From an uncultured Candidatus Saccharibacteria bacterium (GTDB lineage: Bacteria; Patescibacteriota; Minisyncoccia; Phycocordibacterales; PALSA-1337): 64,000 nucleotides of DNA. Positions 8,057 through 48,099 of this stretch are shown in pieces. The stretch lies in NCBI GenBank assembly GCA_964412585.1, contig CAYPPJ010000002.1:9631-73630 (forward strand), read 5' to 3'. Within the stretch, counting starts at the first letter, position 1, and each line of letters opens with the position of its first letter. Under the pieces are notes generated by a model, which was not told where the DNA came from, did not search any database, and was given only the letters and a program-made list of their open reading frames with translations. Both the position numbers and the translations under genes were made by a program.

Positions 8057-11000
8057 CTAGTTCGAGAAGTATCCGTATACTGCTGCCGTATAGCCCATAT
8101 CGATGATAGTGAACTCTCCCATATCAACGATTGCACTACTATCTACATACCTACGCCATATTGGGAAGACGTCCCACTTGCTTACCAAACTTGGATACGT
8201 CAACTCATTCACCTTCCTATGAGGAGCACCGTCAGTCAGTTCACTTTGTATACCATATATTGGAATACCAGGAACTGGGTCATTCTTGCCATCTGTTGAT
8301 GAAATGGTATGAAGCGGTCTCATTGGAGGATTTGAACCGACTCCGGTGATAAAGGTTTTATTGAGTGGATTGCCTCCCAACTGGACATCGAGTGCGATCT
8401 TGGCGTTATCCAAATAAGTAGCAGCGAGGGTAGGATTGATACCCTTTACCAACTCACTTGCTTTGATAAGTGCCCACGCCCAACGAGTTGATTCGGAGAA
8501 TGCTCCCCACCCAGTACCTGGGGTATCTGTATACGAACCATTGTGATATGTGTTGTTTCGGATATTTGCCACTGTTTCATTGGCGAAAGCAAGCAATGTT
8601 GCAGGCCCAGGATTCGTAACTGTATACGCGGAGTTGTTACCGACGTAGAGGTATTTGTTCACAATGGTCTGATCGGCCCCCGCTGTACGGGCATACGTGA
8701 ATCCTGCACGACCTTCACTATCTGAACCATATGAGTTCCAAGTGGTCTGGAGAGCAACTCTGCCAGCCATATCTTTGAAATCAGTATGGAATGCTGACTC
8801 ACCTGTTGCGCGGAAGAGTTCCGCTGCAGCCCACAAGCGCTCGTCATCGGAATTACCTGAATCAGCATTCTCGCCACCACCGGTCGAAGTCTCTGGTACC
8901 GATGATCCATTGAATGTAACCATTGAACCGTTGCCCTTAATGAGACACGGGCGACCAGGATTAGGGTTTTTTGCTGCATCATAATCAACGCATCCAGAAG
9001 CGGGTCCATTGAATCCTGCACGTACAGAAGTGCCTATACCTGGATATCCTGCCGCATAGGCCATGCGTGCTCGAGCCAGATACGTAGCCGCAGCTGTTGG
9101 GAAATATGGCTTCATATCAACCGAAGCTTTGGCCATGATTGCCGCAAAACGCAGGGTTGCAGAAGTTGACTTCTCACTCAACCAGCGCGGGCTATTATCA
9201 TTCCATGGAACAAGATTGCCCCACTGTGAAGTAGCGACGCGGTGGTAGACAAAACCATCCGTCATATTTTGCATACTCAACATCCAATCGAGTTCCCACT
9301 TCGCTTCATCAAGAATATCGGGTGCGCCATTTCCACTTTCTGGAATGGTGAGCTGACTATCAACATACTTAGTCGGCTGTAATTCGTATGCAGTCAAAAG
9401 TTCATAAAGAGCCCCAGAACCACTCTCGACATATTTTCCATAATCCGCAGCGTCATACCAACCCTTTCGAGTATCGACAACCGCATGTACATCAGCTGCC
9501 TTGCCGAATGGATTCAACAAGACTGATGAGTGGACGAACGAGGTGGCATCGAGACCGCTTCCCGCAGCTCGAGCCCATGATTTGCCGAGACCCCACGCTA
9601 TGCCATCGGCGTACGGTGAGGTAAGTGCGATATCGTCACGCTGGAAATACAATCCTTTTGCCGCAATCTTGAAAACGTCATTATAGACTGACGAGCCGAT
9701 CGTAAACGGGTATGTTTTACCATAGCCAGGTGCATACACATAGTAATTTCCCGGAGTTTGGTAGCTCGCAAAGTCACAACTATATACACGTTCCCCGCTC
9801 ATACTGTATCTATGTGGCGCATAAATTGGATTGCTGTTGGTGTCGTACCCTATCACATGTTGTCCGATTCTGATGTCATTTCCCTCATCAGTTGCCGTAA
9901 CCGTTGCAAGTGGTGTCGCCGATTGCGGATTGGTAACGGACGCACTGAATAGCTTACATACAGGTGTTGCAGGTATCGGCATATTTCCGAATTCCTGATA
10001 ATCCCCGAGGTAATTTCCAATATACACATACTTGTGTGCTGATGGGACAAATCCAACCTGGTTTGCCTTTACTGAATTGGTTACCTTGTTGTCATCATAC
10101 GTGAATGTGATGACTTCAGGTCGTGGGTAATCTACGCCATCCGCGGTCTTTATGTTATTGATGGTAAGCGTGTACTGTTTGCCCGCAGCCATATCTGCAC
10201 CAAAGACAAGATACAAATTGTTGCTCGTGATAGGCGCATCCGCAGGAGGCAGGAGTAACGGGCCGATAAAACCAGTAAGCAATGATTCGCGTCCAACACC
10301 GACTATAGGAACAACAGTATTCGCCACTGTATCTTTGAGAATATAATTGCTAGTAGTAACTGCGCTTGCCCTGTCATATGCCTCACCCATACTAAGACGA
10401 ATCACCCTACTCGATATAGGTTCGTATGCTGGAGCATTGCCTTGTGTGTTCACGAGGTAAAATTCATCAACTGCAACAACTGTCTTGTCGTTGAATCTAA
10501 AGGTAAGATTCGTGGCACCTGGACGAACCAAATCACTTGTATTGATAACAACCTGATGCCAAGCGTTATTGACGGAACCTCCTTGAACATACGGTGTCGC
10601 TGTTGGGCCTGGAAGAGAGATGGTAGCGCTCTTTGTTGCAGGATCTGAACTACCAGCATTTGTTGACAAGAAGAATGTGACATCCGTTATACCTGTTGGG
10701 CTGTCGGACTTAATATAGAACACAAACTTGTCATATTGTGACGGGATGCTCAGAGAACTTATGGGAAGGTTCAGCCAATTGTCTGTTCCGTTACTCTGAG
10801 CAGCTTTACCTACAACACCTCCATTCACCAGACCACCACCACTAATAACCCCAGCGATTGTATCTCCATCCCAGATTTTAATACCGCCAGTAACATCAAT
10901 ATCCCCTGCAGGTGGGGGGTTTACCGGTGCACCTCCTCCAACAGCGAAGACACCTTGGCTTTGGTTAACATAGCTTCCACTCGGAGTGACTTCAAGCTTT

Positions 11001-14000
11001 ACTGCTCGTACCATATACGTATATTGTGCCCCACCGCTACTGTCTGTATACGTGGTTCCTGTTACTGGAGTTGCGGTGATCAATGTGAATGGTCCAGCCT
11101 TGCCATTCGTTGACTCGTACACATTGTATCCACGACCTGCATCAGGAGAAGCGTTCCAGGTGATTACCGTGCTTCCGGTACTGTCAGCTCTCGCAACGTT
11201 TGTCACTGGCGCAACCACCTGCATCCTGAGCGTTGGGTCACCCATGAGGTTCATGTGTACTCCTCTGTGTGATTCTGGCAACCCTGCATATCCAGGTAGG
11301 TTGTAGTAGGTGTTGTTGTTTTGACTCGTCTTTGCGCTAAATCCTATCTCTTTGCCAAGTCCCATGTGTGCGAATACCCATACTGGGTTATCAGACCACG
11401 CATTCGTGAGAGCATACCCCTTTGCTGCAAGTGGCGCGCGCAAGAAGTTGTTCTGCACATCCCATTCTTCAAAGTAGCTCGCGAACATTGAATTGAAGAC
11501 GACATTGTATCCGGCCGAAGAAGCAAAGTCGGACGTATAACCTATCCCTGTGGCGCCTGTTAACTGCCCGCCACCAGAACCGCGTGAGAACCAGAGATAG
11601 TTGTTATTACCTTCAACGTTGTTCCAGAATTCAGGTGAATAGAGTGCCTCAAACTGAATACTCTCAATATTCAAAGGCAAGGCTGATCCAAAGAACTGTC
11701 TCTGGAAACTCCTGTTTGTATCACTTGTCATCATTGCCGCTTTTGGATTGTTGTAAATTGCGGAATTGAATACCTTTGTCCTGAAGTCATGATCCTTATC
11801 GAGGTAACGTGACAACAAATCTGTCTCGGTAAGTGGAGTAAAGGCTGGCATATTGTACATATCTACCCTTCCAACCTCGAGTTCAATATCTGATGGAATA
11901 TATGTTGTTGATGTAGTCCATGTTCCATCCATATCTCCATAGAATCCATCAGCCGGCATTGATCTGCTTCCATGTCCATCCGGATTGAGATTGCCGCTCT
12001 TGAATACTGGTATGTGTCCGAGCAAGAATACAGCTTTAGTATTTGTCGGGTCCGCGGTGTAATCGGCCTTGATTGTGCTCTTTACTGAATCCGCCGTCGC
12101 CGTTGAAGGTACGCTATGGTCAAGTACAACCCAACCGTCACCAACCAAATCATCCTTGAGTCTATCTATTTTCGTGGCAAGACTAGTGGCGAATCTCGAG
12201 TCAACCATCAGTATTATTTTTCCTCGAGTTGTTACTTGAGGCAACTCAATACCAGTGTAGATATATGCATCAGCATTATGTTGAGTATTTGCCCTGTTGA
12301 CACGATACTCATATGCTGTGCCTGCCGTGACTGAGGTATCGGTATATGAAGTGATGCCTGTACCACTCCCTATCTGTGTCCATGTACCCGCACCACCTGC
12401 AGGTCCACCTATTACGGTTGAACGGTAGATCGTATAATTCGCACTTGCTTGAGCCCACGGATCTGGATACCAGCTCAGTGTTATTTGCGCTGGAGATTTT
12501 TGCACTACTGCACTCAGACCTAGGAAAGTAATATCCGTATTTGGATTTGCGTCCACGTGCCGTATGACAATAGTAGCTTTTGGCGATGTTCCCAGAGGTC
12601 CAGTACATGTCATTGAATAGCCTGTGCTAATGCTTGGTGAAACAGTCAATGTTCCTGAAGTTGTCGTAGCTCCACTCCAACCGTCTGAGTTATCGTCAAT
12701 ACCATCGGTTAATGTACACGAGGAAGCATTTGTCGAACTCCGAGTAATGAGAGCCTTCTCACCATACATGACCCCTGTCTTACTTGACGTAAGTGTTGCA
12801 GTCACCCCAGTCGATGTCGTCTGCGTTGTCGCCGATACTGCTGGACTCGATGAAGCAGAGACATTGTTTGCCGCATCAAAAGCCTTGATGACATACGAAT
12901 ATGTTGTCGCTGGCGTCAATCCTGAATCCGTAAATGCGAGCGCTGAGGTTGTTGATGCTACAACACCATCTCTGATGACACGATATCCTGCCACACCAAC
13001 ATCGTCGACCGCTGCTCCCCATGTCAGATTGATTGCGCTCGATGATACGGCTGTTGCGGTGACTGCATATGGAGCAAATGGTGGTTGACTATCGCCCCCA
13101 AGTGTCTTGGTTCTGAAAGTCATATCGGACGAGGTGGCAAGGTTGCCCGCAGCGTCTTTTGAATTGACTGAGAAGTGGTAAATCGCATTCGCGGTCAAAC
13201 CACTGATTGTTGCGGTATGACCTGTTACCTTGGTTGAATCAAGAGTAGTGTTGCTGCCATAGCCGTTGGTTGTACCGTAGAGCACTTGCGTGTCAGCAAG
13301 CTCATTGGTATTCCAGGTAATAGTCGCTGTAGTTGTAGTGGTCGTTGACGCAATCCCTGTGATGACTGGCTTGGTCGTATCCGTCTGATTGCCTGACTGA
13401 ATAGTGAATGTGTACTGCGTCGCATTTGGGTTGTCACCACTATATCCATAATCATCATTTTCAACATATACCTTGAGAGGCGTGCCTATGTAGGCAGTAT
13501 ATGTGGTAGAAGTTGGAATCGAGACAATCAAGTTTCCAGCCGCATTTGGGGATATGTTGTAGAAGGAAAATGGACCAATCTGAACTGTGTTATTTTGAGT
13601 AAAATGAGTACCAGAAATGGTCACCATCTGACCGAGCGGGCCTGTGCTTGGGGTCACTCCGGTTATTTTTGTGACATTATCAATCGATAAGATTTCAAAC
13701 GGAACAGCATTACTGATTTTCGTTACACCACCTACCGAGACAGTGTCGGTCAATAGGTACTTCCCTTCCACAATTGTCCCAGGAACATCAGCAACGAGCT
13801 GTGTTCCAGATGAATCAAGATTGCCAATATTTACACCATTGATACCTAGACTAGTGACCGCTCCTGTCGTCGTGCTCGTAAGTTTCAAGTTATTTCCCGT
13901 CAATGCAAAATTTATTCCCTGAATATCCTGTCGGCAGAAATATACGCCGCGAATACAATATGGAAGACTGATTGAATTGATCACGGGAGTCGGAACCTGT

Positions 14001-15307
14001 GCTGATCCTCCAATAGTAAACGTCCCTACTCTATACCTGTATGCGCCCGCATCAGTTGCACCAGCACTGGTATCAGCCTGTAACTCAAGCCTCTGCTCTC
14101 CAGAATACAATCCAACCATAACCGCATACGTACCTGATGGTGCATTCACAGGAACCTTGTACGAAACTGCAGTAGAGACAACGCCTGTACTTGGCCAATT
14201 GGTTGCTGATGGAGATGGATAGAAGTCCGCCCCTTTGAGATATGCCCCCGTGGTCATATTCTGGAAATGAACAAACGCCATCCATGTTGTCCCTTTGAGT
14301 GGCGCTGGAATAGGTGAGGTCGCGCTATAGTTTGCCCCTCCAACCCAATTCAGATCGAAACTAAGTGTGGATCCTGGGGACACATTGGTAACTGGCGCTG
14401 TCCAACCACGAACTTTAATCTTTTGATATGGCAACGGTGTGCCGGTGCCTGTAACTACAACAGCCGCTCCGACTGAAGCTGATATTCCGCTCGCGTTTGA
14501 ACACGCAAGTCCATACGTCGTATTTGTAGTCGGCGTAACTATTTGACTACCCGAAGCTGCTTTTGTCCCAGACCAGCCACCCGATGCTGTACATGAGGTG
14601 GGGCTATTGGTAGATGACCAGGTGAGAGTTACGTTTTGCCCTGCTGTAATGGAGGTTGGAGATGCTGAAAATGTGACCACAGGAACTGGAATTGGGTTAG
14701 GATTTGCTCCTGATGCCTTCAAAACAATGGAATCAATATAATATGTAGTACTGTTAGTGGTTTCTTTGAATCGAAGCTCTTGGGTACTTGAAAGATCCCA
14801 CGTGCCACTACCCTTGAGACTGGCCATCGAGATAGTAATCGTCGACCATGATCCCGTTGGGTTGGATGTGACTGGTTGACTATCAGCTGCCGCGGTATAG
14901 CTGTGCAGATATGTCACCAAAGGATCAGGGGTCGCGGTAGTTGCCTTTATGTGGATCTCAATACGATCATATCCACCAAAATTGATAGCTCCGCCACACG
15001 CATCAATGAACCTAAGGATTCCTCCGGTCCACTTTGTGGTCGCGATTGAGATAGAGTTACCTCCGTTTTCGGCAGTTCCGGAAGATATTGAGGCATTTGC
15101 ATCAAAACAGGTAAATGGAGTGGTTGGCCCGAAAAGTACCCTGTCTTGCGTCTCGGCCGTTACCTGTGCCAGATTTGAAACCCAGGCCGTCGGCACAGAT
15201 TTCTGATCAAACGCGTATATTAATGCCACTATGGCTACCAACAGAAGGATTGCTACAAGGACAAGGCTGGCAGCCCGTGAAAATGCACGCGTGAGTAATA
15301 TGCTCAT
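8057..15307 (-). CDS. giant (2416 aa) membrane-anchored surface protein with FN3/Ig-like repeats and C-terminal GH9-like glycoside hydrolase domain
   Basis: Uninterrupted 7.25-kb ORF; N-terminal TM/signal (LVLVAILLLVAIVALIYAF); Thr/Ser/Gly-rich beta-repeat modules (e.g. PPFAPYAVTATAVSSSAINLTWGAAVDDVGVAGYRV... FN3-like); C-terminal ~600 aa carry GH9 hallmarks KGWYDAADYGKY, DEAKWELDWMLSMQ, FITGVGSNPPMRPLHT and GEFTIIDMGYTAAV. Confidence 0.8.
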   Translation of the reverse strand: MSILLTRAFSRAASLVLVAILLLVAIVALIYAFDQKSVPTAWVSNLAQVTAETQDRVLFGPTTPFTCFDANASISSGTAENGGNSISIATTKWTGGILRFIDACGGAINFGGYDRIEIHIKATTATPDPLVTYLHSYTAAADSQPVTSNPTGSWSTITISMASLKGSGTWDLSSTQELRFKETTNSTTYYIDSIVLKASGANPNPIPVPVVTFSASPTSITAGQNVTLTWSSTNSPTSCTASGGWSGTKAASGSQIVTPTTNTTYGLACSNASGISASVGAAVVVTGTGTPLPYQKIKVRGWTAPVTNVSPGSTLSFDLNWVGGANYSATSPIPAPLKGTTWMAFVHFQNMTTGAYLKGADFYPSPSATNWPSTGVVSTAVSYKVPVNAPSGTYAVMVGLYSGEQRLELQADTSAGATDAGAYRYRVGTFTIGGSAQVPTPVINSISLPYCIRGVYFCRQDIQGINFALTGNNLKLTSTTTGAVTSLGINGVNIGNLDSSGTQLVADVPGTIVEGKYLLTDTVSVGGVTKISNAVPFEILSIDNVTKITGVTPSTGPLGQMVTISGTHFTQNNTVQIGPFSFYNISPNAAGNLIVSIPTSTTYTAYIGTPLKVYVENDDYGYSGDNPNATQYTFTIQSGNQTDTTKPVITGIASTTTTTTATITWNTNELADTQVLYGTTNGYGSNTTLDSTKVTGHTATISGLTANAIYHFSVNSKDAAGNLATSSDMTFRTKTLGGDSQPPFAPYAVTATAVSSSAINLTWGAAVDDVGVAGYRVIRDGVVASTTSALAFTDSGLTPATTYSYVIKAFDAANNVSASSSPAVSATTQTTSTGVTATLTSSKTGVMYGEKALITRSSTNASSCTLTDGIDDNSDGWSGATTTSGTLTVSPSISTGYSMTCTGPLGTSPKATIVIRHVDANPNTDITFLGLSAVVQKSPAQITLSWYPDPWAQASANYTIYRSTVIGGPAGGAGTWTQIGSGTGITSYTDTSVTAGTAYEYRVNRANTQHNADAYIYTGIELPQVTTRGKIILMVDSRFATSLATKIDRLKDDLVGDGWVVLDHSVPSTATADSVKSTIKADYTADPTNTKAVFLLGHIPVFKSGNLNPDGHGSRSMPADGFYGDMDGTWTTSTTYIPSDIELEVGRVDMYNMPAFTPLTETDLLSRYLDKDHDFRTKVFNSAIYNNPKAAMMTSDTNRSFQRQFFGSALPLNIESIQFEALYSPEFWNNVEGNNNYLWFSRGSGGGQLTGATGIGYTSDFASSAGYNVVFNSMFASYFEEWDVQNNFLRAPLAAKGYALTNAWSDNPVWVFAHMGLGKEIGFSAKTSQNNNTYYNLPGYAGLPESHRGVHMNLMGDPTLRMQVVAPVTNVARADSTGSTVITWNASPDAGRGYNVYESTNGKAGPFTLITATPVTGTTYTDSSGGAQYTYMVRAVKLEVTPSGSYVNQSQGVFAVGGGAPVNPPPAGDIDVTGGIKIWDGDTIAGVISGGGLVNGGVVGKAAQSNGTDNWLNLPISSLSIPSQYDKFVFYIKSDSPTGITDVTFFLSTNAGSSDPATKSATISLPGPTATPYVQGGSVNNAWHQVVINTSDLVRPGATNLTFRFNDKTVVAVDEFYLVNTQGNAPAYEPISSRVIRLSMGEAYDRASAVTTSNYILKDTVANTVVPIVGVGRESLLTGFIGPLLLPPADAPITSNNLYLVFGADMAAGKQYTLTINNIKTADGVDYPRPEVITFTYDDNKVTNSVKANQVGFVPSAHKYVYIGNYLGDYQEFGNMPIPATPVCKLFSASVTNPQSATPLATVTATDEGNDIRIGQHVIGYDTNSNPIYAPHRYSMSGERVYSCDFASYQTPGNYYVYAPGYGKTYPFTIGSSVYNDVFKIAAKGLYFQRDDIALTSPYADGIAWGLGKSWARAAGSGLDATSFVHSSVLLNPFGKAADVHAVVDTRKGWYDAADYGKYVESGSGALYELLTAYELQPTKYVDSQLTIPESGNGAPDILDEAKWELDWMLSMQNMTDGFVYHRVATSQWGNLVPWNDNSPRWLSEKSTSATLRFAAIMAKASVDMKPYFPTAAATYLARARMAYAAGYPGIGTSVRAGFNGPASGCVDYDAAKNPNPGRPCLIKGNGSMVTFNGSSVPETSTGGGENADSGNSDDERLWAAAELFRATGESAFHTDFKDMAGRVALQTTWNSYGSDSEGRAGFTYARTAGADQTIVNKYLYVGNNSAYTVTNPGPATLLAFANETVANIRNNTYHNGSYTDTPGTGWGAFSESTRWAWALIKASELVKGINPTLAATYLDNAKIALDVQLGGNPLNKTFITGVGSNPPMRPLHTISSTDGKNDPVPGIPIYGIQSELTDGAPHRKVNELTYPSLVSKWDVFPIWRRYVDSSAIVDMGEFTIIDMGYTAAVYGYFSN

Positions 15308-15427: not shown

Positions 15428-15443
15428 CAAAAGTATCCGGCTG

Positions 15444-15515
15444 TGCCCTCAGTAGGAATCGAACCTACATTGCAAGATCCGCAATCTTGCGTCCTATCCA
15501 TTGAACGATGAGGGC
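15444..15515 (-). tRNA. tRNA-Arg (anticodon GCG as read)
   Basis: RC: gccctca tc gttc aatggata ggac g caaga ttgcgga tcttg caat gtagg ttcgatt cctac tgagggc a; perfect acceptor, anticodon and T stems; anticodon loop ttgcgga gives GCG. Confidence 0.75.
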
Positions 15516-15527: not shown

Positions 15528-15791
15528 TTACGCTATTTTTTTGAGCGCTGCCATCACGCGAGACTTGGTGCGTGATGAAGTGTTGGCCTTGATATAGCCG
15601 GTCTTTACGGCCTTATCGAGAGCCTGATAAATAGTTGGGACAAGCTTACCTGCCCCATTCTTATCTTTTGCAGCCACGAGTTTACGGAACTCTTTGATCT
15701 GCTTTTCTATAGTAGACTTGCGGCGGAGATTGAAAACACGCTTAGACTTTGAAGCGCGAAGTGCTTTGTGGGCTGATGAGGTAATAGGCAT
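15528..15791 (-). CDS. rpsT: 30S ribosomal protein S20
   Basis: MPITSSAHKALRASKSKRVFNLRRKST... canonical S20; start trimmed to the MPITSS methionine. Confidence 0.85.
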   Translation of the reverse strand: MPITSSAHKALRASKSKRVFNLRRKSTIEKQIKEFRKLVAAKDKNGAGKLVPTIYQALDKAVKTGYIKANTSSRTKSRVMAALKKIA

Positions 15792-15920
15792 ATAAGTTGT
15801 ATGTAGACGATAAGTTAACACGTCATGAGAGAAAAGTAAATAGTAACTAGTAAATAGAGGCTGAAACGTGTGATTTTCTCATTACTAGTTACTAATTACT
15901 ATATACTATATACTATTCTC

Positions 15921-17812: not shown

Positions 17813-19066
17813 CTACAAATTCCTCCCCGAAAATCTTCTATTCAACTCTTGGACAGTCTTTTCTCCCAAACCTTTTTCGTTAATATTGTATTTCTTTTGA
17901 AATGACTCGATTGCAGCTTGAGTGCATGGACCAATCTTGCCCGTGCGTGGACAATCATTTTTTGTTTTATCTTTTGGCGGGTAGAGTCCATCCACCAGAA
18001 GCGCGGTCTGTAGAGCAAAAACGTCGGGCGATTTATTATTCTTTTCAGAAAATGTTGGACTCCATGTATGAGGTAACGCCAGCGTGTCATAAACTGCAGC
18101 CAATGATGATGAGCCTTGCGGATGGAAAAAGTCTTCGAGACCAAGGTAGGTCTGAAATGCCAAGTCTTTGATAGCAGTTTTGTAAGCGGCCGAGTCGGTA
18201 AACTGCGTTTCGTAAATATACCCGTACTCGATGAGGAGACTTGCCGCGTCAGCTGTATCGTTGGCACCAATCGCGATGAGTTCTCTCTCATCAATAATAC
18301 CCTCAGATTCTCCTGGGAAATCACTGACTGGATTGTATCTGCTCAGACGATTGAAGATGGCCTGCGCGACTGCGCGGGTGGTCGTACTATTAGAGTATTG
18401 TTTTTCAGGACTGTAGATTGCAAAACCACTATACTTCCCTGGCGTAAGATACGGATGACCTGGATAATCATTGAAATGTATATGTATGGCAATATCAATA
18501 TTATTCTCATTTGACCATTTCGTCATGCCATAGAGACGATACGCCACATCGTTAGGAGCGCTGTTGTGGTAGACCTTTGGCGCAGGCAATGGTGCGGAGT
18601 TCGCGACCTTACGCAGCGATTCTTGGCGATGATCTTTTTGCCAAGAAATAATGTTGTTCCACTGTGTTTTGAAATAATCAGCAAACGTCGGGTTCCAATT
18701 TTTCTGGTCACGCGCAATGACAACGTCATACTTGGTATTTGCACTCAAAAAAGTCCCGAGTTCTTCCGCAAGATCAACGGTCATTTCACGCTCCTTGAGA
18801 GAACCGTACTCCGCACCTCCATATCCCGGTTCATGACCAGGAACAAGGAGGATGCGGATTCTGGCCTTACCTTTTTCAGCTTCAGTCGTATATTTTTGTT
18901 GTAGTCCAACAATAGTGCGCGGATTGTGTGTCACAACCGCCGCAACCTGATCACCAATACCATGCAGCCAGGCAACAATGCGATCAGCCTGTTCAGGATA
19001 TTGTGTCGCCAACCATGGCACCATGAAGATGGTGACCGCAAGAGAAAGTGCAACGTAGTAACGCAT
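17813..19066 (-). CDS. N-acetylmuramoyl-L-alanine amidase (Amidase_3) with C-terminal peptidoglycan-binding domain
   Basis: LLVPGHEPGYGGAEY ... EREMTVDLAEEL ... DIAIHIHFN (Amidase_3 zinc ligands) and C-terminal PG_binding_1-like LQTALLVDGLY... Confidence 0.8.
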   Translation of the reverse strand: MRYYVALSLAVTIFMVPWLATQYPEQADRIVAWLHGIGDQVAAVVTHNPRTIVGLQQKYTTEAEKGKARIRILLVPGHEPGYGGAEYGSLKEREMTVDLAEELGTFLSANTKYDVVIARDQKNWNPTFADYFKTQWNNIISWQKDHRQESLRKVANSAPLPAPKVYHNSAPNDVAYRLYGMTKWSNENNIDIAIHIHFNDYPGHPYLTPGKYSGFAIYSPEKQYSNSTTTRAVAQAIFNRLSRYNPVSDFPGESEGIIDERELIAIGANDTADAASLLIEYGYIYETQFTDSAAYKTAIKDLAFQTYLGLEDFFHPQGSSSLAAVYDTLALPHTWSPTFSEKNNKSPDVFALQTALLVDGLYPPKDKTKNDCPRTGKIGPCTQAAIESFQKKYNINEKGLGEKTVQELNRRFSGRNL

Positions 19067-35798: not shown

Positions 35799-36905
35799 CT
35801 AACGATTCATTGGCATGACCAGGTACAAAAAGCTTTGATCACCAGAGATTGGCTTTATAACAACAGGTTTATTGAGGCCATTGAGTAATAACGTCACACT
35901 ATCAGCATGTATTGATTGGAAACCGTCAATAAGATACTTGTAATTGAAGTTAATCTCCATCCTATCTCCTTTGAGAGCCGCGTCTACTTGTGTCTGATTC
36001 TCACCCACATCGCTATTTTTGGTTTGAATTTCAAACATTTTTCCTTTTGGATCGATAGTAAGATGGACTTGATTGAATTTGTCAGAAAAAATATTAGAGA
36101 TTTTAAGAGCATTCATAATGTCTTGTTTCAGCGCAACAATCTCTGTCGTAGATGTTTTTGGGATAATTTGTCGGTAATCAGGAAACGTTCCATCAATAAT
36201 ACGAGAAACTATATATACACCTTCATTTTCAAAAGATATGAGGTTTTTGGTCGCCTTGACCGTAGCTGTTGAATTGAAACTCTCTAGTACCCTAATAATG
36301 TCGGGTATGTTCTTGAAAGGGATCAATATATCATTGAGTTTGTTGGTAATAGGGGTTTGGATTTTCTTTTCAGCAAGACGAAATGAGTCTGTAGCAACAA
36401 AAACAAGGTTATCTGCGTCTTTGTATATATACACACTGGAAAGTTCTGGTTTTACACTGGAAATGGAGGCACTATATGAAACTGAGGTTAGGCCGTTAAT
36501 AAAATCTGCTGTGGGAATTTGATATTCTTGCCCATCTTGGATCTTTGGAATACTAGGGAAATCCTCAGGAGGAACTGTTTTGATAACTCCTTTAGATTTT
36601 GCAGTCTTTATGTGTACATTTCCAGAGACCAATTCAAGGGTAACAACTTGGCTCTGTTCTTGGATTTGAGCAAGAAAAGAAGAGAGGGTTTGAGCTGGAA
36701 CAGCTATTACCCCAGAGGTATCTGATTTTATTGGTATAGACACTTCAACCCCCACATCAAGGTTGGTTGCTTTGAATATGGCTGAATTTTTTGAAAATTC
36801 AATCAGAATACAAGAAAGGACTGGGAGGGTCTGGTGTTTGTGGGCTACTTTATCTACCAAACTAACTGCTTCTTTGAATTTTTTAAATCCCAACTCTAAT
36901 TTCAT
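35799..36905 (-). CDS. dnaN: DNA polymerase III beta sliding clamp
   Basis: MKLELGFKKFKEAVSLVDKV... three-domain clamp, 368 aa, directly downstream of dnaA. Confidence 0.93.
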   Translation of the reverse strand: MKLELGFKKFKEAVSLVDKVAHKHQTLPVLSCILIEFSKNSAIFKATNLDVGVEVSIPIKSDTSGVIAVPAQTLSSFLAQIQEQSQVVTLELVSGNVHIKTAKSKGVIKTVPPEDFPSIPKIQDGQEYQIPTADFINGLTSVSYSASISSVKPELSSVYIYKDADNLVFVATDSFRLAEKKIQTPITNKLNDILIPFKNIPDIIRVLESFNSTATVKATKNLISFENEGVYIVSRIIDGTFPDYRQIIPKTSTTEIVALKQDIMNALKISNIFSDKFNQVHLTIDPKGKMFEIQTKNSDVGENQTQVDAALKGDRMEINFNYKYLIDGFQSIHADSVTLLLNGLNKPVVIKPISGDQSFLYLVMPMNR

Positions 36906-37129
36906 TGTATTTTTTTATTTTTATAAACCCAATCTACTATTAGGACTGTGAATATGTTGATATCTTCTAACCACCTATATTTCTCAACATATTTTGGAAG
37001 TAGTAATCTATTCTCAAACTGTTATCAATAATACCCAATTAAACTTACGTATCATCTGTGTATTACCTCCCTACTTACTCACATACTAACCATCCTCTAC
37101 ACACAAACTATTCACAGGTTTGTCCCCAC
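36906..37129. promoter_or_regulatory. AT-rich dnaA-dnaN intergenic region with degenerate DnaA-box-like 9-mers (candidate oriC segment)
   Basis: ~30% GC, 224 nt; motifs tgtgaatat, gttatcaata, ctattcacag resemble TTATCCACA with 1-2 mismatches. Confidence 0.4.
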
Positions 37130-38476
37130 TTATAACATAGTACGAACCTGGGTTATTTCCTGCGACAGGAGCTGATCGGTTTTTATCTCCTCTCGCATCT
37201 TTTCATACGAATGGATAACCGTGGTGTGGTCTCTACCACCCAATTTTTCTCCAATCGAAGGAAAAGATATCCCAAAATCCTCACGGAGGATATACATGAC
37301 TACCTGACGAGGGCGGACCACCTCTTTTCGGCGTGTTTTATTGTAGATACTGTCCTCATCTATGTTATAAAATTCAGAAACAATCTTAACCACATCCTTC
37401 ACAGACATCATTTTCTTTGGTTTTAGGTTGTTTTTGAGGATATTTCTAATCTCATTAAGATTCAATTCCCTATTTTTTAGCTGCGTCTGACAAGCAATCA
37501 CATTGATAATACCCTCTATCTCACGGATATTATCTTCAATTGACGTGGCAATATAATCAATAATTTCATCAGACAAAGTAATGTTGTGTGTGCCACACTT
37601 GGTGCGCACGATCATCATACGTGATTCTTGGTCAGGTTCAGGGATGTCGACAATCATTCCCATCGAGAAACGGCCTTTTAGACGATCTTCAAGCCCAGGT
37701 ATAACATTTGGGTGTTTATCTCCTGAAAAGACAAGCTGGCGTGCTGTATCGTAGAAAGTGTTGAAGAAATGGAACAATTCTTCCTGAAACTTCTCCTTAC
37801 TTGCGAAGAACTGGATATCATCCATGATAATAACGTCATATTTCCTATACTTATCCTTGAAAGCCTGCACTTTACCCTCTTGGATGGCTGTAAAAAGTTC
37901 AGAACCAAAGCGTTCAGAGGTCAAATAAAACACTTTCTTATCCGGATGTAACTTTTTTATCTGATTTCCAACCGCCTGGATGATGTGGGTCTTTCCTCTT
38001 CCGGTTTGTCCATAAATAAAGAGCGGGTTATATGAGTGCCCGGGGTTTTTTACAACCATTTGTGAGGCGGCATGGGCAAGTTCGTTGAAAGGACCAACAA
38101 CAAGGCTTTCAAAGGTATAGCGTGGATTGAGGTTATCTTCCTTGTTAATGTAGAAGTCCTGCAATGGCATAGCAATAGTGGGTGTAGGAGAAGACTCTTT
38201 GCGAGAATGCTGCCCGCCCTTGCCATCCTCTCGGACAATAACGTACTCCAGCGCTCGCACACGCTCATTCATCTGCCTTAGAATGCGTAAAATTGAGTTA
38301 TGGAACTTTTTTTGGAGCCACTCGTGGGTAAATGAGTTTGGAACGCCGAGGTAGATGGTGCCCTCGTCTTCACGAAGGATACGAATATCTTTGAACCACG
38401 TGGAAAAGTTTGCCTGAGATACAGCGCTTTCAATTTCTATGAGGGCAGTTTGCCACATTTTGCTGTGATCATTCAT
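37130..38476 (-). CDS. dnaA: chromosomal replication initiator protein DnaA
   Basis: AAA+ Walker A GQTGRGKTHIIQAVGNQ, Walker B IIMDDIQF, sensor motifs, C-terminal DNA-binding domain (RRKEVVRPRQVVMYIL). Confidence 0.97.
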   Translation of the reverse strand: MNDHSKMWQTALIEIESAVSQANFSTWFKDIRILREDEGTIYLGVPNSFTHEWLQKKFHNSILRILRQMNERVRALEYVIVREDGKGGQHSRKESSPTPTIAMPLQDFYINKEDNLNPRYTFESLVVGPFNELAHAASQMVVKNPGHSYNPLFIYGQTGRGKTHIIQAVGNQIKKLHPDKKVFYLTSERFGSELFTAIQEGKVQAFKDKYRKYDVIIMDDIQFFASKEKFQEELFHFFNTFYDTARQLVFSGDKHPNVIPGLEDRLKGRFSMGMIVDIPEPDQESRMMIVRTKCGTHNITLSDEIIDYIATSIEDNIREIEGIINVIACQTQLKNRELNLNEIRNILKNNLKPKKMMSVKDVVKIVSEFYNIDEDSIYNKTRRKEVVRPRQVVMYILREDFGISFPSIGEKLGGRDHTTVIHSYEKMREEIKTDQLLSQEITQVRTML

Positions 38477-40122: not shown

Positions 40123-41442
40123 TTACTTTGCAGTGAGATCAAGAGACCAAAGAGAGAGGTCGTTCTTGTTCATGAATATTAGAAAACGATCCTTTTCATC
40201 AAGGCCAAGATTGAATGCGTCGATGATTCGGTCAGACGTGTCAACAATTGAGGATATTAGATGAACTTCCCCTGTCGTTGCACTAACCTGCCATATTTTA
40301 TCGACGAACGAAACGGTGCCTTTGTACCAATCATCTGGATAGGTCGCCGCGACTGGTTGGGCGGGAACGGCACAATAGATCATGTCTTTATAGAAGTTAC
40401 CCCAGACGCATTTGTCGGCAAGTGTGCGAATGACCGCGTCAGTTCCTTTCTTTTTATCAACATCAAATATACTTGAAACGATATTGTCCGCGCTTCCCGC
40501 CGCAGAAAGGAAGACCTTTTTCGCATCAACACTTACTTTTGTGCTCAAGCCAGGCAATGGACCAAGAATTTTCTTCCATACGCCTGTTTTTGCATTGACG
40601 AAGTAGAGAAAACCACGTTCGTCTGCCGCGCCCTTTGTTGTGAGAGCGATAGTGTTTTCTTCAGGCCACTCAGCATTTACTTGGGTCACTGGGGTGCTAA
40701 AGAGTGGTAGTGGGGCTGAACCGTCAAATTTGAGTATGTATCCCGCGCCAGCACCCTTTTCATTGATTAACACAAATACACGATCTTTTTTAGGGGATAC
40801 CGCAAAAGTCAGAATATTTTCTGGTAGGTTTTTTCCTTTGAGCTCATAAGGGGTCAGTGCAGAATCGGTTACTGATGTAGTTGTTGATACTTTTGGCATA
40901 ACTCGAGCCCGGAGCTCTGCCCAGATTCCTCCAACATTATTTTTTTCGGTTATACCAAAGGCCAAGAAAGACGAGAGGTTTTTGTTCCACACACTTTCAT
41001 ACATTTTAGGAACAACCGTATTCGAAATAGTTTTGATATCAAGAGTATTTCCGCGTGCCTCATAGACATTACCACGTCCCCTATCGATCCAACGGATAGC
41101 TGTTGTGGTGCTCGCAGCTTTTGCATTGACTGGACCTGTCGTACTTGCCCCATATCCCGCTACTGGCGTATTACTCAAAAGACGAAGGGTTGGAATTTTG
41201 AGCTGTGTACCAGAAGCTGTTGAACCGGTGCCATTTGTGCCTACACGAGGAGTACTTGTGCTCGTGCCTGACGATTGTGTTGGTGTACGACCAAATGGGG
41301 TGAAGCCATTTTGTTGTGTGTTTGATGGTTCGCCAAAGTCTGTTGTACCGATTCCCCGCACAAAGAAGTACCAGTATGCGCCACCAGCGATGATGAGTAG
41401 AATAATGAGGCCTATGATGTATTTTAGGGATTTTGAGGTCAT
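40123..41442 (-). CDS. membrane-anchored protein with S/T-rich linker and beta-propeller-like domain (last gene of T4SS-like operon)
   Basis: N-terminal TM IIGLIILLIIAGGAYWYFFV, then TPTQSSGTSTSTP... low complexity, then ~330-aa globular domain. Confidence 0.55.
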   Translation of the reverse strand: MTSKSLKYIIGLIILLIIAGGAYWYFFVRGIGTTDFGEPSNTQQNGFTPFGRTPTQSSGTSTSTPRVGTNGTGSTASGTQLKIPTLRLLSNTPVAGYGASTTGPVNAKAASTTTAIRWIDRGRGNVYEARGNTLDIKTISNTVVPKMYESVWNKNLSSFLAFGITEKNNVGGIWAELRARVMPKVSTTTSVTDSALTPYELKGKNLPENILTFAVSPKKDRVFVLINEKGAGAGYILKFDGSAPLPLFSTPVTQVNAEWPEENTIALTTKGAADERGFLYFVNAKTGVWKKILGPLPGLSTKVSVDAKKVFLSAAGSADNIVSSIFDVDKKKGTDAVIRTLADKCVWGNFYKDMIYCAVPAQPVAATYPDDWYKGTVSFVDKIWQVSATTGEVHLISSIVDTSDRIIDAFNLGLDEKDRFLIFMNKNDLSLWSLDLTAK

Positions 41443-42902
41443 GGTGTTCCGCCGAGGCCCGTTATAAGAGCACTGGTTTGTTTATCAAATAATTGCCTGA
41501 CTGAAGGGTCACTTATTGTTGGCAAAGCTGCAGTTCTCATTCTCTTTACATCAGCAATTGTTGTCTGGGCAGCCTCCTTGTAAAGTGTTAGTTCGCCCGC
41601 TTTCACGCCCGCATTTACAAATTGTGCTGCAGTGAAGCCGGCCGCACCGCCGAGTACACCCCCTGCCGATGTTCCTGCGATGGTGAAAAGGGTTGTGACA
41701 CTTGATTGGAAGGTATCCACCATAGCTTTTACCGATGGACTCTTTGACATACCGTACAGTATAGTGGAGTTTATCTTGGTTATAGCCTCCGCATATTTTT
41801 GATAATCAAGGACTTGTCCCGAAGCGACATCATTTCCAGATTTCTTCAACATTTCACTGTATTTTGTGCTCTCGTCAGCTATTTCTTTAAGGCACGTTGC
41901 TTGATCGTAATTATTTCCATAGTTCCACCACAAAAAACTACTTGATTCAGTGGTTATACCATAGCATTTTTGGATTATTGCGTTCATTATACCAACTCCC
42001 TGTTTAGTGGTGATTGATGCAGTCAGATCTTTTTGCTGGTTATTAATATCGGCAATACGTGCTGCAAGTGCCCGAGAAGCTGGGTCAAGTATAGATGACT
42101 GATCTATAAGTGATTGACATACGTTGGTTGTTCCCGCGGGGACAATTCGATCGTCGATACTATCCATACCGTTTGGATCCGGAACGAATGAATTGACTGA
42201 ATCAATCAATTGTTTACATAAGTCAGCTTTTTGTTGGTCGAGTTCGTCGGATTTTTTCTTTGCCTCAGCAACGGATTTTATAAGATCCATATTATCGCTT
42301 CGGAACTTGCTTGCATCGCGGTTTAGTTGGTCAAATATACCGCTCAATGCCTGAGGTTCATATTTTATATCAAGTGGTTTTACCAACGTCGTTGGTATAT
42401 CAACGAGCCTCGGGTCAACTGTTTTCAGAATAAGATATGAACACAGCACAAGTAATAGGCCGAGCAACGCATTTTGTATTTTTTTAATACCATCAGTTTT
42501 TTGATTATACGCATCGGAGCTCATATACTCGAAACCGCCCCAGACAATCATAAATACCGCCGCAACAGCGCAGAGTGCAATAAGAAGGTTGAATGCATAC
42601 TGTACATAATCTTTAAATTTGACTGAAGTGATTTGTGTCCCTGTTTGGCAATCTACGGCCGGTGTGGTGATTTTTCCGGTAGCATCCTTGACGGCCGGGC
42701 TTGGAACGCATGGCAATGGTTCTAGAAGCGTATAACTAGATTCAGTGTTACAGACGGGGTTGTTTTTTGCATTTGCCGCACTACAATCTGGCCCCGTGGT
42801 TTGTGCCGAAGTGATTGATGTTGAACCAAGTAAAATAACTGCCATTAAGGCTATAAGAGGGATGTTGCAAACTATTTTTCTAAGTATGGAGTATGTATTC
42901 AT
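41439..42902 (-). CDS. secreted/membrane protein with Cys-rich N-terminal region, two central TM helices and C-terminal coiled-coil (T4SS-like operon)
   Basis: Signal peptide, PDCSAANAKNNPVCNTE..., TM pair VQYAFNLLIALCAVAAVFMIVWGGF / IQNALLGLLLVLCSYLIL; 4-nt overlap with downstream gene. Confidence 0.55.
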   Translation of the reverse strand: MNTYSILRKIVCNIPLIALMAVILLGSTSITSAQTTGPDCSAANAKNNPVCNTESSYTLLEPLPCVPSPAVKDATGKITTPAVDCQTGTQITSVKFKDYVQYAFNLLIALCAVAAVFMIVWGGFEYMSSDAYNQKTDGIKKIQNALLGLLLVLCSYLILKTVDPRLVDIPTTLVKPLDIKYEPQALSGIFDQLNRDASKFRSDNMDLIKSVAEAKKKSDELDQQKADLCKQLIDSVNSFVPDPNGMDSIDDRIVPAGTTNVCQSLIDQSSILDPASRALAARIADINNQQKDLTASITTKQGVGIMNAIIQKCYGITTESSSFLWWNYGNNYDQATCLKEIADESTKYSEMLKKSGNDVASGQVLDYQKYAEAITKINSTILYGMSKSPSVKAMVDTFQSSVTTLFTIAGTSAGGVLGGAAGFTAAQFVNAGVKAGELTLYKEAAQTTIADVKRMRTAALPTISDPSVRQLFDKQTSALITGLGGTP

Positions 42903-42908
42903 AGGTAA

Positions 42909-43931
42909 TTAAAAATTCAACCCCTCCCCTTGTGTTGGTGTTCTATTAAATTGCACCGAAAAAGTGGCGTCTGTACCTTGAAGTATTTTCTCAATATTAC
43001 GAATACTCACTTGGACATTTGATGATCCTGTAGAGTCGTCTGGTGCACGTAACACAACTGACTCTTTGTTCGTCAAGCTTGACCTTCCTGAATTGTTAAG
43101 ACCCCACGACCAATCAAGATCACCAGTTCCCACGCGAGGCTTATTGAACCCAAAAGGAACGGCGAGGACACTCGTCTCTTTGTTTGAACCAATGCGCAAA
43201 GTTGAACCTATCGATCTGTTAAAGAGGGTTCCATATAAAGGATCCTCTATATAAAATTGTATCTCAGGACCTCGGGTTATTACTTGAGTATAGGCGCTTG
43301 CGGATGAATCATTATCTTTTGGCCACACAGTTACTGAAATATCATATGGTCGAGGCACTACATCACCCACAAGCACAATAGATTGTTTATTATATCCAGA
43401 CTGGTCTTCAAGGGCTCTCCCGTTCTTTTTCCATTGGTACACTAGTGCAGAAGGACTGTATTCGATACCAGCTGAATTGGCAATGTGAGGTACCGCAATG
43501 ATGGTTACTGAATTTTGATATACAGCTGGAATCTTCCCTTTAAAAAATGGAGGAGTATAGCCATCAGTTTCTAATAGCAGATCGACTGACCCAGAACCAA
43601 TAATGATTGAAGATTTAACAATTACCCCATCAACATTGGTGGCCGTTACTTCAATTGATATTTTCTTTCCTAAAGCAGGAGCCACAACGTCAAACGATGT
43701 CATTCCCGCACCTGACTTCGAAAGCTTTCCATCGACATACCAGGATACTTTGGAAGAATTAATATCTATTGTATAGCTCCGAGCGGTGACGGTGATAGTT
43801 TGTCCCGGAGAAGGGTTGTTACTGGATGGTGATAATTCTAGTCCACCAATGGAAGTTGGCACTTGAGCATGTGCAACAGCCGAAAACATAAAAGCGCACA
43901 GTAGAATTACCCCAAAGAAACGAGATTTCAT
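42909..43931 (-). CDS. secreted Ig-like/beta-repeat protein (T4SS-like operon)
   Basis: Start placed at MKSRFFGVILLCAFMFSAVAHAQ (signal peptide); the longer ORF to 44024 would overlap the upstream gene. Confidence 0.5.
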   Translation of the reverse strand: MKSRFFGVILLCAFMFSAVAHAQVPTSIGGLELSPSSNNPSPGQTITVTARSYTIDINSSKVSWYVDGKLSKSGAGMTSFDVVAPALGKKISIEVTATNVDGVIVKSSIIIGSGSVDLLLETDGYTPPFFKGKIPAVYQNSVTIIAVPHIANSAGIEYSPSALVYQWKKNGRALEDQSGYNKQSIVLVGDVVPRPYDISVTVWPKDNDSSASAYTQVITRGPEIQFYIEDPLYGTLFNRSIGSTLRIGSNKETSVLAVPFGFNKPRVGTGDLDWSWGLNNSGRSSLTNKESVVLRAPDDSTGSSNVQVSIRNIEKILQGTDATFSVQFNRTPTQGEGLNF

Positions 43932-43986
43932 TAGCTTTATTTTACCACGCCCTTTCAATACAGTCTGCAGTAATTTCGGGGATAAT

Positions 43987-44421
43987 TTATTTCGGTAACG
44001 AGCCGTTTGGTGGTCTGAAATCACCCTGGTGAATAGGGTTTTTCGGTGGAGCGTGTCTCATCCCCTCAACGTTCATTTTTGGGCCCATTTTTCCTTTAGT
44101 TAGTACATTGGCTGAAATCCCCGTTTTATCCTCAAGTCGCGTTGTGCCTACTATGATGAGCATTGCGACAAAAATGGTAGGCAATTCCTGCACACCTGGA
44201 ATAAGCTCCGCTATTGTGGAGATAATTTTTGTAACTCCCTGTTTTCCGCTGACAATTCCCATACCCTGTCTCCAAAAGTACACACTCGCAAGGACCCAAA
44301 ATATAGGACCGACAAAGTCGCCGACAAGAGGGATTAAGGTGAATAGGTCAGCAACAAGGGCCGCAACAACCAAAATGGCCCCTGCGGCGTTAGTAATTCG
44401 GTTCTTTTTGGATGTATCCAC
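43987..44421 (-). CDS. small polytopic membrane protein (T4SS-like operon)
   Basis: 3-4 TM helices (ILVVAALVADLFTLIPLVGDFVGPIFWVLASVYFW...). Confidence 0.5.
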   Translation of the reverse strand: MDTSKKNRITNAAGAILVVAALVADLFTLIPLVGDFVGPIFWVLASVYFWRQGMGIVSGKQGVTKIISTIAELIPGVQELPTIFVAMLIIVGTTRLEDKTGISANVLTKGKMGPKMNVEGMRHAPPKNPIHQGDFRPPNGSLPK

Positions 44422-44458
44422 GGTTCAATTATAACAAACTAACCTTTGGATTGTGACA

Positions 44459-46273: not shown

Positions 46274-46277
46274 ACGT

Positions 46278-46922
46278 TTAGGTTATCTGTATAGGCTTCT
46301 CTGTTTCTCCTGGGTTGAAGAGTTTGTAGAACAATTCTACCACCTCTTCTGTCCCAAGTTCTGCGGCTCGAATACCACAGCGTACCAGCCCCTGTTCGAC
46401 CACAGCGACACGTTGTTCAAGTTGGCTGCGGTATTCCTGAAATTTTGCATCAGCACTTGCCGTCTGTTCTTTTGCCGTGCCCTTGCTGGGAAATATATTC
46501 GAAATCGGATTTTTGCTTGCGGTCATGAGTGGTGGGTCATAGGGTATGACGACAAAGAAGCTCTTTGACATGATGTTGGTGTTTTCAACAAAGGTTTTGA
46601 TGAACTCTATATATTCACGTACCTGGATTTTCATGAGTTCCGTAGCCTGTTCTTTGTAGCGGTCTTCGAGGAGAGCGATGTAGGGTCTAATATCCAGCTT
46701 TTTTGATTGAACGAATATCTGGATAGAAAAATCGAGCGAATTAACGAAGTTCTGGAACTGCATCAGAATAGAACTTTGCTCATCTTGGGATTTCAAGGCA
46801 AAGTTGAGAGATGATACCAAGACGATTGCGCGCATACCGCCATTCTTGAGGATAATGACACCGTCGCGTATCTCCTGTATCGGAATAAAATCTTGGGTTG
46901 TTTTTGATGATACGGCAGCCAT
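46278..46922 (-). CDS. VirB4-family N-terminal domain encoded as a separate ORF
   Basis: IPIQEIRDGVIILKNGGMRAIVLVSSLNFALKSQDEQSSI... matches the first ~200 aa of VirB4/TrbE proteins; stops 4 nt before the ATG of the 604-aa ORF (taa-acgt-atg). Confidence 0.6.
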   Translation of the reverse strand: MAAVSSKTTQDFIPIQEIRDGVIILKNGGMRAIVLVSSLNFALKSQDEQSSILMQFQNFVNSLDFSIQIFVQSKKLDIRPYIALLEDRYKEQATELMKIQVREYIEFIKTFVENTNIMSKSFFVVIPYDPPLMTASKNPISNIFPSKGTAKEQTASADAKFQEYRSQLEQRVAVVEQGLVRCGIRAAELGTEEVVELFYKLFNPGETEKPIQIT

Positions 46923-47356
46923 TATCGTTGATTTTTATTTGAATACATACTTTCTTTGATATCCAGGCTCCAGCTTAGGTCTTTCAATTTGCTGTCAGAA
47001 ATTTTCGGAACCATGATAGAGGCATAGTTTTTAACATCTGTAGCCTCCGCCTCGGTCGTTTGAGGCGTTGTTCTATCCGCCTTTCTCCATATATAGAGCT
47101 TACTGCCGAGATAGTATTTAAATGCAGCTTCGACAACAGTTATAAAAGGTTTGTTATTTATCTTATAGAAAGCGAGTGCGCCTGATATGGCCATAATCAA
47201 GATGATCGGTACAATGGCCAGGGTTACGTTTCCAAGAAATACATAGACTACGAAAGACAGTCCTCCCCCACCAGCCAAGTAGATAAACTGCTTGAGCGTG
47301 AGTGGCCCGAAGATCTTATCCTCGACTTCTATAAATTGGGGAACTTGAAATCGCAT
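46922..47356 (-). CDS. PrgI/VirB3-like small 2-TM T4SS protein
   Basis: MRFQVPQFIEVEDKIFGPLTLKQFIYL + two TM helices; sits directly upstream of VirB4 as in Gram-positive T4SS loci. Confidence 0.55.
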   Translation of the reverse strand: MRFQVPQFIEVEDKIFGPLTLKQFIYLAGGGGLSFVVYVFLGNVTLAIVPIILIMAISGALAFYKINNKPFITVVEAAFKYYLGSKLYIWRKADRTTPQTTEAEATDVKNYASIMVPKISDSKLKDLSWSLDIKESMYSNKNQR

Positions 47357-47395
47357 TGCTCATATTATAGCGTCAAGCGAGGATATGGGAAAGCG

Positions 47396-48088: not shown

Positions 48089-48099
48089 AATTGTTCATG

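Follow-up and report, generated by a model that had tools for sequence, protein, structure and literature searches.

A giant gene of a predicted Patescibacteria bacterium encodes a divergent GH9 domain and an embedded, cysteine-less gingipain-fold cassette

The 64,000-nucleotide (nt) stretch of contig CAYPPJ010000002.1 analyzed here (the window) carries on its minus strand a single giant open reading frame (ORF) with an ATG start, which encodes a protein of 2416 amino acids (aa; 2416 codons and a stop). The protein has a glycoside hydrolase family 9 (GH9) domain at its C terminus and, in its middle, a domain with the gingipain fold that contains no cysteine. That this one gene, probably coding for an anchored GH9 protein, takes up 11% of the 64-kb chromosomal stretch was pointed out in an earlier note, made from the sequence alone, and is confirmed here. 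The gene itself is the following feature:

8057..15307, minus strand: complete gene, the identical product of which is called on 11 metagenome contigs

The chance of 2416 codons without a stop is about 1e-50. The 11 contigs come from at least five samples (JGI 3300045392, 3300045394, and 3300045332; Logan SRR23702481/2), and since the exact protein is found on all of them, it is not an assembly artifact. An assembly chimera or a pseudogene was rejected: the identical ORF is present in several independent assemblies, and a 72%-identical contig (L006, covering aa 862-2168) crosses the junctions of the fibronectin type III (FN3)/gingipain-fold cassette described below. Sources that name the protein mostly call it a "hypothetical protein"; NCBI also has an entry for it. 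A literature search returned no account of the protein, its GH9 subclade, or Cys-less gingipain homologs. In NCBIfam, the whole protein matches only the CelK and CbhB equivalog models, far under their cut-offs, and there is no model for the FN3/gingipain-fold/FN3 cassette or for the modules that resemble carbohydrate-binding modules (CBMs).

Thr, Ala, Gly, and Ser together make up 40.6% of the residues. The 12 cysteines form six intradomain pairs, which fits an extracellular location. A self-BLAST shows no internal repeats; homologs and hhalign were needed to detect both the duplication of an immunoglobulin (Ig)-like domain that contains a Cys pair and the presence of two CBM-like copies. The sequence motifs quoted in the earlier note were all located, with KGWYDAADYGKY at aa 1948-1959, GVGSNPPMRPLH at aa 2322-2333, and GEFTIIDMGYTAA at aa 2397-2409 in the C-terminal part and KAVFLLGH... 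at aa 1091 and GDPTLRMQVVAP at aa 1356-1367 in the central domain.

GH9 domain and its accessory modules

The C-terminal part of the protein consists of a CBM-like module, two Ig-like domains, and the GH9 domain:

8060..9685, minus strand: GH9 catalytic domain (aa 1875-2416), assigned from Pfam, PDB matches, and alignments
8309..8314, minus strand: Leu2332-His2333, where canonical GH9s have His-His or His-Asp
9719..10081, minus strand: probable CelD_N Ig-like domain (aa 1743-1863), assigned from a Pfam match slightly under the cut-off
10088..10432, minus strand: Ig-like domain of the S-layer SbsC/Sap type (aa ~1626-1740)
10442..10900, minus strand: CBM-like beta-sandwich, copy 2 (aa ~1470-1622), an apparent distant relative of CBM11/CBM30/CBM8

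The Pfam Glyco_hydro_9 model (PF00759) matches aa 1875-2347 with an E value of 1.9e-43 (149.9 bits against a cut-off of 27.7). Ten solved GH9 sequences match the protein, all with E values of 4.5e-24 or lower; those of 3X17, BoGH9A (6DHT), and CelD (1CLC/4CJ0) range from 1e-39 to 5e-44. The profile alignment to the solved structures begins within their Ig domain and covers the full Ig+GH9 length. Residues D1952, D1955, Y1959, and E2398 are invariant in a 19-sequence GH9 alignment. Counting residues along the printed CelD profile alignment places the Asp pair D1952/D1955 (nt 9443-9454), which lies in GWYDAADYGKY, at CelD D198/D201, and E2398 (nt 8114-8116) in the column of CelD E555, the Glu of NEIAINWNA (chain index 531). 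Because of these correspondences the catalytic machinery is intact, and the C terminus can be assigned as a true, albeit divergent, GH9 domain. With the catalytic Asp pair and Glu kept, the domain most probably functions as an inverting beta-1,4-glycanase. The earlier note had read the C terminus as GH9-like from a DAxD pair and a C-terminal Glu, naming a missing profile match or misaligned Asp and Glu positions as grounds for dropping that reading; the profile match is strong and the three carboxylates align with the catalytic residues.

The third hallmark proposed there, a His in the motif MRPLH, fared differently. The motif is present, but it is Leu2332 that aligns with the canonical GH9 His (CelD H516, in NPH), and H2333 falls one residue downstream. 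The active-site His is conserved among canonical GH9s, without being a family-defining trait.

The protein and about a dozen relatives define a GH9 subclade with a remodeled active-site surround and its own CBM-Ig cassette. In this subclade (P0121-P0130 and P0266-P0276), NPHH is replaced by DPLx, xNE(V/I)AINWNA is replaced by M(S/G)EFTI, and there is an extra YPxLRRY segment; the canonical His is absent in the whole of P0121-P0130. Outside the protein's own lineage, identity is at most 37%. CelD (1CLC), 3X17, and BoGH9A (6DHT) combine a CelD_N Ig domain with GH9, as this protein probably does, align over their full length, and share the DAxD pair and the Glu. In contrast to these ~30%-identical proteins, the one studied here has Leu for the canonical His and MGEFTII for NE(V/I)AINWNA; it also has a loop at aa ~2085-2150 with a disulfide (Cys pair 2106/2121) and a PS..YPxxRRY segment before the Glu. 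Whereas CelD, 3X17, and BoGH9A are free or cellulosomal proteins of ~560-640 aa, this one is predicted to be membrane anchored and has 2416 aa.

The loss of the His (CelD H516) and the altered surroundings of the Glu, both extending through the whole subclade, would be compatible with a catalytically dead GH9 domain that serves as a lectin-like binding head. This is highly unlikely, as D1952, D1955, and E2398 are strictly conserved in the subclade and in canonical GH9s alike, and selection on all three carboxylates argues for catalysis.

The closest GH9 homolog beyond the protein's own lineage, P0122 (1098 aa, 37% identity), is encoded on an archaeal contig (L023, GCA_053534295.1 contig JAIYLI010000005.1, gene 10001-13297), next to genes for ribosomal protein L15e, a TFIIS/RPB9 zinc ribbon protein, SBDS, CDC48, and TrmB. 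Owing to this location, the divergent subclade is common to bacteria of the Candidate Phyla Radiation (CPR), an archaeon, and Bacteroidota.

The CelD_N domain scores slightly under the Pfam cut-off in this protein (E value of 3.1e-4, 21.9 bits against 24.6) and over it in homologs from the subclade. A structural model of aa 1460-1745 (pLDDT 82) resembles CBM8/11/30 and the SbsC Ig domains. The protein's own CBM-like module falls short of every Pfam CBM model; in P0270, the corresponding stretch scores over the cut-off for CBM_11, and in P0271 it comes close to that for CBM30. Matches to aa 1460-1745 comprise only 12 cluster representatives in a library of 1.84 billion proteins, and every match examined (P0121 and P0266-P0273) has a GH9 domain. 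The CBM-Ig-Ig-GH9 cassette recurs in proteins of ~750-1700 aa, several of them with N-terminal hydrophobic anchors, as well as in Bacteroidota proteins that carry the tail of the type IX secretion system (T9SS), namely, P0273 and, from precomputed Por_Secre_tail matches, P0123 and P0125. One such protein, in Dyadobacter, adjoins two SusC/SusD pairs. These accessory modules point to beta-glucan binding, as judged from their relatives.

Clostridium thermocellum CelJ (Cel9D-Cel44A) has a CBM30/Ig/GH9 architecture, to which the present protein adds an SbsC-like Ig domain in between; unlike CelJ, it has no dockerin. Subclade member P0270 (1380 aa) starts with a hydrophobic anchor, contains two CBM-like copies, and continues after GH9 with CHB_HEX_C_1 and a weak PG_binding_1-like tail (21.2 bits, under the cut-off of 23). 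The tail hints at another way in which the cassette might be fixed to the cell wall.

Gingipain-fold domain and the embedded cassette

The stalk of the protein contains a complete cassette built around the central domain:

10940..12529, minus strand: embedded FN3/gingipain-fold/FN3-like cassette (aa 927-1456), colinear with free-standing secreted proteins of ~550 aa
11207..12241, minus strand: gingipain (peptidase C25, clan CD) fold domain (aa 1023-1367), with the Ser1277 and Ser1244 positions

The earlier note had delimited a central domain of ~350 aa without recognizing its family. The domain is there, and it shows a caspase-hemoglobinase-type fold with the two gingipain subdomains. Its match to Pfam Peptidase_C25 (PF01364) stays under the cut-off (17.5 bits against 23), whereas its relative P0012 passes with 27.6 bits. 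Identity to the gingipains RgpB and Kgp is 13-15%; in contrast to them, the domain is flanked by FN3 modules and embedded in a glycosidase. The domain (aa 1023-1367) is a structural homolog of C25 peptidases; as aa 1020-1375 do not contain a single Cys, it is not a cysteine peptidase.

The catalytic positions were mapped onto RgpB (residues 207-351, sequence confirmed) from spacing and secondary structure, not from superposition. The RgpB strands ending at H211 and C244 correspond to model strands of which one ends at Ser1244 and the other immediately ahead of Ser1277; H211 and C244 are 33 residues apart, as are Ser1244 and Ser1277, and the next helix and strand match, too. On this mapping, Ser1277 (nt 11477-11479) would occupy the position of the nucleophile (RgpB C244) and Ser1244 (nt 11576-11578) that of the catalytic His (RgpB H211). 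All 55 family members compared have Ser at the position of Ser1277, and at the position of Ser1244 they have Cys (32 members), Ser (16 members), or Asn (5 members). When RgpB 207-351 was searched with the trimmed family profile (hmmsearch), the GDP motif was all that aligned. A profile search of the PDB that started from the full A1 alignment gave mainly matches to the FN3 flanks and none to the gingipains.

The family comprises 373 homologs at E values of 1e-3 or lower among the scored candidates. Most are ~550 aa long, come from Bacteroidota, Planctomycetota, Verrucomicrobiota, and Betaproteobacteria, and are labeled "hypothetical" or "fibronectin type III." An alignment of 55 diverse members has 30 invariant and about 45 nearly invariant columns. 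In the protein studied here and its nearest relative, P0001, several residues conserved in 85-96% of the family are replaced (H1115R, W1117M, G1276A, G1280E, G1306D, R1307N, and H1313A), which suggests that the function may have been altered, relaxed, or lost after the fusion.

The domain is most likely a noncatalytic module that would serve for binding or as a spacer. Alternatively, it might be a second enzyme alongside GH9, using either Ser1277 as a nucleophile or the conserved D1110/H1112/D1120 cluster. Such a bifunctional surface hydrolase is improbable. In its favor are the 30 invariant and about 45 nearly invariant columns, with the nucleophile-position Ser and the GSYFGDWD motif among them, and the wide occurrence of the family as free-standing secreted proteins, including the dockerin-bearing P0041 and members with precomputed Por_Secre_tail matches. 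However, with Ser, Cys, or Asn at the His position there is no classical dyad, the replacements from H1115R to H1313A affect this very protein, and the residue mapping derives from spacing and secondary structure. We know of no serine hydrolase with the clan CD fold. Slightly more doubtful still is a bolder version, in which the whole family would be a new type of secreted hydrolase, either a serine-type clan CD enzyme or one acting on glycans or cell walls through the D/H/D cluster, and a CPR lineage would have inserted such a protein in frame into an anchored GH9, making a two-enzyme tool against the envelope of a partner.

P0041, a free-standing protein of 622 aa with the gingipain fold, has a C-terminal type I dockerin (Pfam E value of 2.8e-6); therefore, at least one member of the family belongs to a cellulosome-like, polysaccharide-degrading setting. 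The neighborhoods of two free-standing homologs are unrelated to each other and offer no functional clue. Whatever its role, this widespread, uncharacterized gingipain-fold family, which apparently has Ser where the peptidases have their catalytic Cys, deserves attention.

On both sides of the gingipain fold, the family profile matches structures of FN3 domains, and aa 25-544 of the 548-aa protein P0009 align to aa 931-1454; P0042, P0008, P0020, and P0083 behave alike. As the free-standing members are colinear end to end with aa 927-1456, a whole mature FN3/gingipain-fold/FN3 protein is embedded in the stalk, which makes this a clean example of an entire secreted protein inserted as a block. 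P0009, P0042, and P0008 are 38-46% identical to this segment and share the same invariant residues. They are unnamed proteins with weak Pfam C25 matches and no NCBIfam model; unlike the internal module studied here, they are ~550 aa long and have signal peptides of their own.

A positional ortholog, P0266, has the same gene order, with the giant GH9 gene followed by convergent enolase, a 154-aa ORF, and genes for RuvX, a tRNA-binding protein, VTT, and PilM. It matches aa 295-815 with 54% identity and aa 1366-2415 with 36% identity, and aa ~816-1365 are missing; upstream, its reading frame runs to the contig end, matching aa 113-413. Because a syntenic ortholog does without this segment, the block made up of the duplicated Cys-pair Ig domain and the cassette was either gained in the lineage of the window or lost in that of P0266.

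Anchor and stalk

From the N terminus to the embedded cassette, the protein has the following predicted parts:

15209..15274, minus strand: N-terminal hydrophobic segment (aa 12-33), 22 uncharged hydrophobic residues, read from the sequence
14714..15163, minus strand: CBM-like beta-sandwich, copy 1 (aa ~49-198), from hhalign against the profile of aa 1470-1622 and BLAST
14432..14680, minus strand: Ig-like domain with the Cys pair C239/C269 (aa ~210-292), from its Cys positions; duplicated at aa 832-918
14003..14425, minus strand: presumed beta-sandwich domain (aa ~295-435), conserved in the ortholog P0266
13388..13990, minus strand: two IPT/TIG-type domains (aa ~440-545 and 548-640), the second from Pfam TIG
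12851..13354, minus strand: two FN3 domains (aa 652-733 and 745-819), from Pfam
12554..12814, minus strand: second Cys-pair Ig-like domain (aa 832-918; C864/C901), missing from P0266

The hydrophobic run A12-F33, flanked by R7/R11 on its N side and D34/K36 on its C side, bears out the N-terminal anchor proposed earlier. It is long for a cleavable signal peptide and, by eye, has no obvious AxA site; it is probably an uncleaved signal-anchor, that is, a transmembrane helix. The earlier note had also suggested looking for a sortase or S-layer-type anchoring motif. The protein contains no LPxTG sorting motif (pattern LP.T[GAS]), its Pfam matches include neither an SLH domain nor the T9SS Por_Secre_tail, and the GH9 domain forms its C-terminal end.

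The first CBM-like copy aligns with the profile of the aa 1470-1622 domain with an hhalign probability of 95.9% (E value of 5.7e-9) and gives BLAST matches to the N-terminal domains of P0127 and P0128. Behind it come, in order, the Cys-pair Ig domain, the presumed beta-sandwich, the two TIG-type and the two FN3 domains, the duplicate of the Cys-pair Ig domain, and the central cassette. The duplication was seen through the fragment P0252 (aa 212-276 versus aa 838-908, 36% identity). The presumed beta-sandwich at aa ~295-435 has no significant Pfam match. The second TIG domain (about aa 548-632) matches Pfam TIG with an E value of 6.9e-7, and the first, which contains the Cys pair 451/458, is assigned by position alone. 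The FN3-like repeats noticed earlier are found at aa 652-733 (Pur_ac_phosph_N, fn3-like; E value of 3.2e-6) and aa 745-819 (fn3; E value of 1.2e-11), the latter being the better of the two stretches in the protein that match Pfam fn3.

Host, likely function, and gene neighborhood

DnaA encoded in the window is 77-92% identical to proteins labeled Patescibacteria group, Paceibacterota, Taylorbacteria, Parcubacteria, or Minisyncoccia. The sole contig from a named genome with a close homolog of the giant protein, L006 (72% identity over aa 862-2168), is labeled Candidatus Saccharibacteria. From these two lines of evidence the host can be assigned to the CPR/Patescibacteria, in agreement with the reduced-genome organism surmised earlier. 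The class label "Saccharibacteria" was not adopted, given the labels of the DnaA relatives. L006 (CAYZZN010000061.1, 4434 bp) lies wholly within the giant gene, and its reading frame is split into several ORFs, probably through assembly frameshifts; its own label is at odds with the Paceibacteria-type labels of the DnaA relatives.

The gene product is likely a cell-tethered extracellular glycoside hydrolase on a long stalk. In the proposed arrangement, the uncleaved signal-anchor would keep the protein in the cytoplasmic membrane, and about a dozen beta-sandwich modules of the Ig, FN3, and TIG types would form the stalk, with a CBM-like copy near its membrane-proximal end. Into this stalk a block consisting of the duplicated Cys-pair Ig and the complete FN3/gingipain-fold/FN3 protein would have been inserted. 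The working end would comprise the CBM11/30-like module, the SbsC-like Ig, the CelD_N Ig, and the GH9 catalytic domain, which might act at the cell surface or beyond it and cleave a glucan-type polymer with beta-1,4 linkages; candidates are cellulose, mixed-linkage or xyloglucan-like glucan, and microbial exopolysaccharide. The freed oligosaccharides could then nourish a cell that lives by fermentation and has few biosynthetic capacities. According to a review (PMC11665869), the many glycoside hydrolases of Patescibacteria are thought to release products that these bacteria ferment. As background, Saccharibacteria-type organisms have been observed to be enriched in cellulose-fed cultures (PMC5874631) and to persist in cellulose-fed compost communities (PMC10462680).

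Several points weigh against this interpretation. The 64-kb window has no sugar transporter and no other carbohydrate-active enzyme. With Leu2332 at the place of the canonical His and MxEFTI instead of NE(V/I)AINWNA around the catalytic Glu, the activity or specificity of the subclade may differ from that of known GH9 cellulases. The subclade has no characterized member, and the nearest solved structures are only ~30% identical. If the N-terminal segment is cleaved after all, the protein would be secreted rather than tethered. Finally, the ~30 invariant residues in the gingipain-fold family would be unusual for a mere spacer.

The same architecture could serve episymbiosis, with the protein recognizing, holding, and locally digesting the envelope or capsule polysaccharide of a host cell and thus providing both attachment and access to host material. 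Cultivated members of the CPR are obligate epibionts according to the literature, including the review cited above (PMC11665869), and the protein is very long, apparently anchored, and equipped with two CBM-like modules. The window also encodes type IV pilus components, a cluster resembling a type IV secretion system (T4SS), an amidase_3 protein, and a LysM-M23 peptidase, and the nearest non-CPR relative of the GH9 domain comes from an archaeal contig. Nevertheless, the CBM-like module appears to be related to the beta-glucan-binding CBM11/30, and the same cassette occurs in free-living Bacteroidota beside SusC/SusD. In addition, the GH9 activities known from CAZy are directed at beta-1,4-glucans, xyloglucan, or glucosaminides, and not at peptidoglycan. 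An episymbiotic function is thus rather unlikely, and the "host interaction factor" of the earlier note is speculation.

A tethered glycoside hydrolase would be of interest for what it says about its owner. The CPR/Patescibacteria, whose genomes are tiny, are believed to subsist on sugars freed by their glycoside hydrolases, very few of which have been examined; the substrate of this GH9 subclade would reveal the food source or the attachment target of such cells. The enzyme class is ordinary and current views are not overturned. The protein stands out for its divergent subclade, for a very large and probably anchored architecture encoded in a CPR genome, and for the Cys-less gingipain-fold protein embedded in it.

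The neighbors of the giant gene are housekeeping genes for enolase, RuvA, ribosomal protein S20, a Mur ligase, amidase_3, Fpg, and PolA. Elsewhere, the window contains dnaA/dnaN, genes for PilB and PilM (type IV pilus), PBP1, and the LysM-M23 peptidase, the T4SS-like cluster, and five tRNA genes. Directly upstream of the giant gene, on the minus strand, are tRNA-Arg(GCG) (15443-15515) and the gene for ribosomal protein S20 (15528-15821). The 53 nt ahead of the ATG contain no convincing promoter or Shine-Dalgarno sequence, and promoter and terminator scans around the gene scored no better than shuffles.

The T4SS-like cluster (40123-51951, minus strand) includes genes for a TraG/VirB4-type P-loop ATPase (44459-46273) and a protein with a T4SS pilin-like segment (41439-42902), together with large ORFs that have no Pfam match (40123-41442, 42909-44024, 48100-50139, and 50146-51951). 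A 607-aa ORF (59529-61352, minus strand) has no Pfam match, and a 272-aa ORF of the other strand (59491-60309) overlaps it. The window also encodes two proteins predicted to hydrolyze peptidoglycan, an amidase_3 protein with a PG_binding_1 domain (17813-19066, minus strand) and a LysM-LysM-M23 peptidase (56273-57526, plus strand), which could bear on wall remodeling or on action against a host wall. The adjacent dnaN and dnaA genes (35799-38476) coincide with the lowest GC content in the window (0.375, at about 36000-38000), and because of these two features this region is probably the chromosomal origin region.

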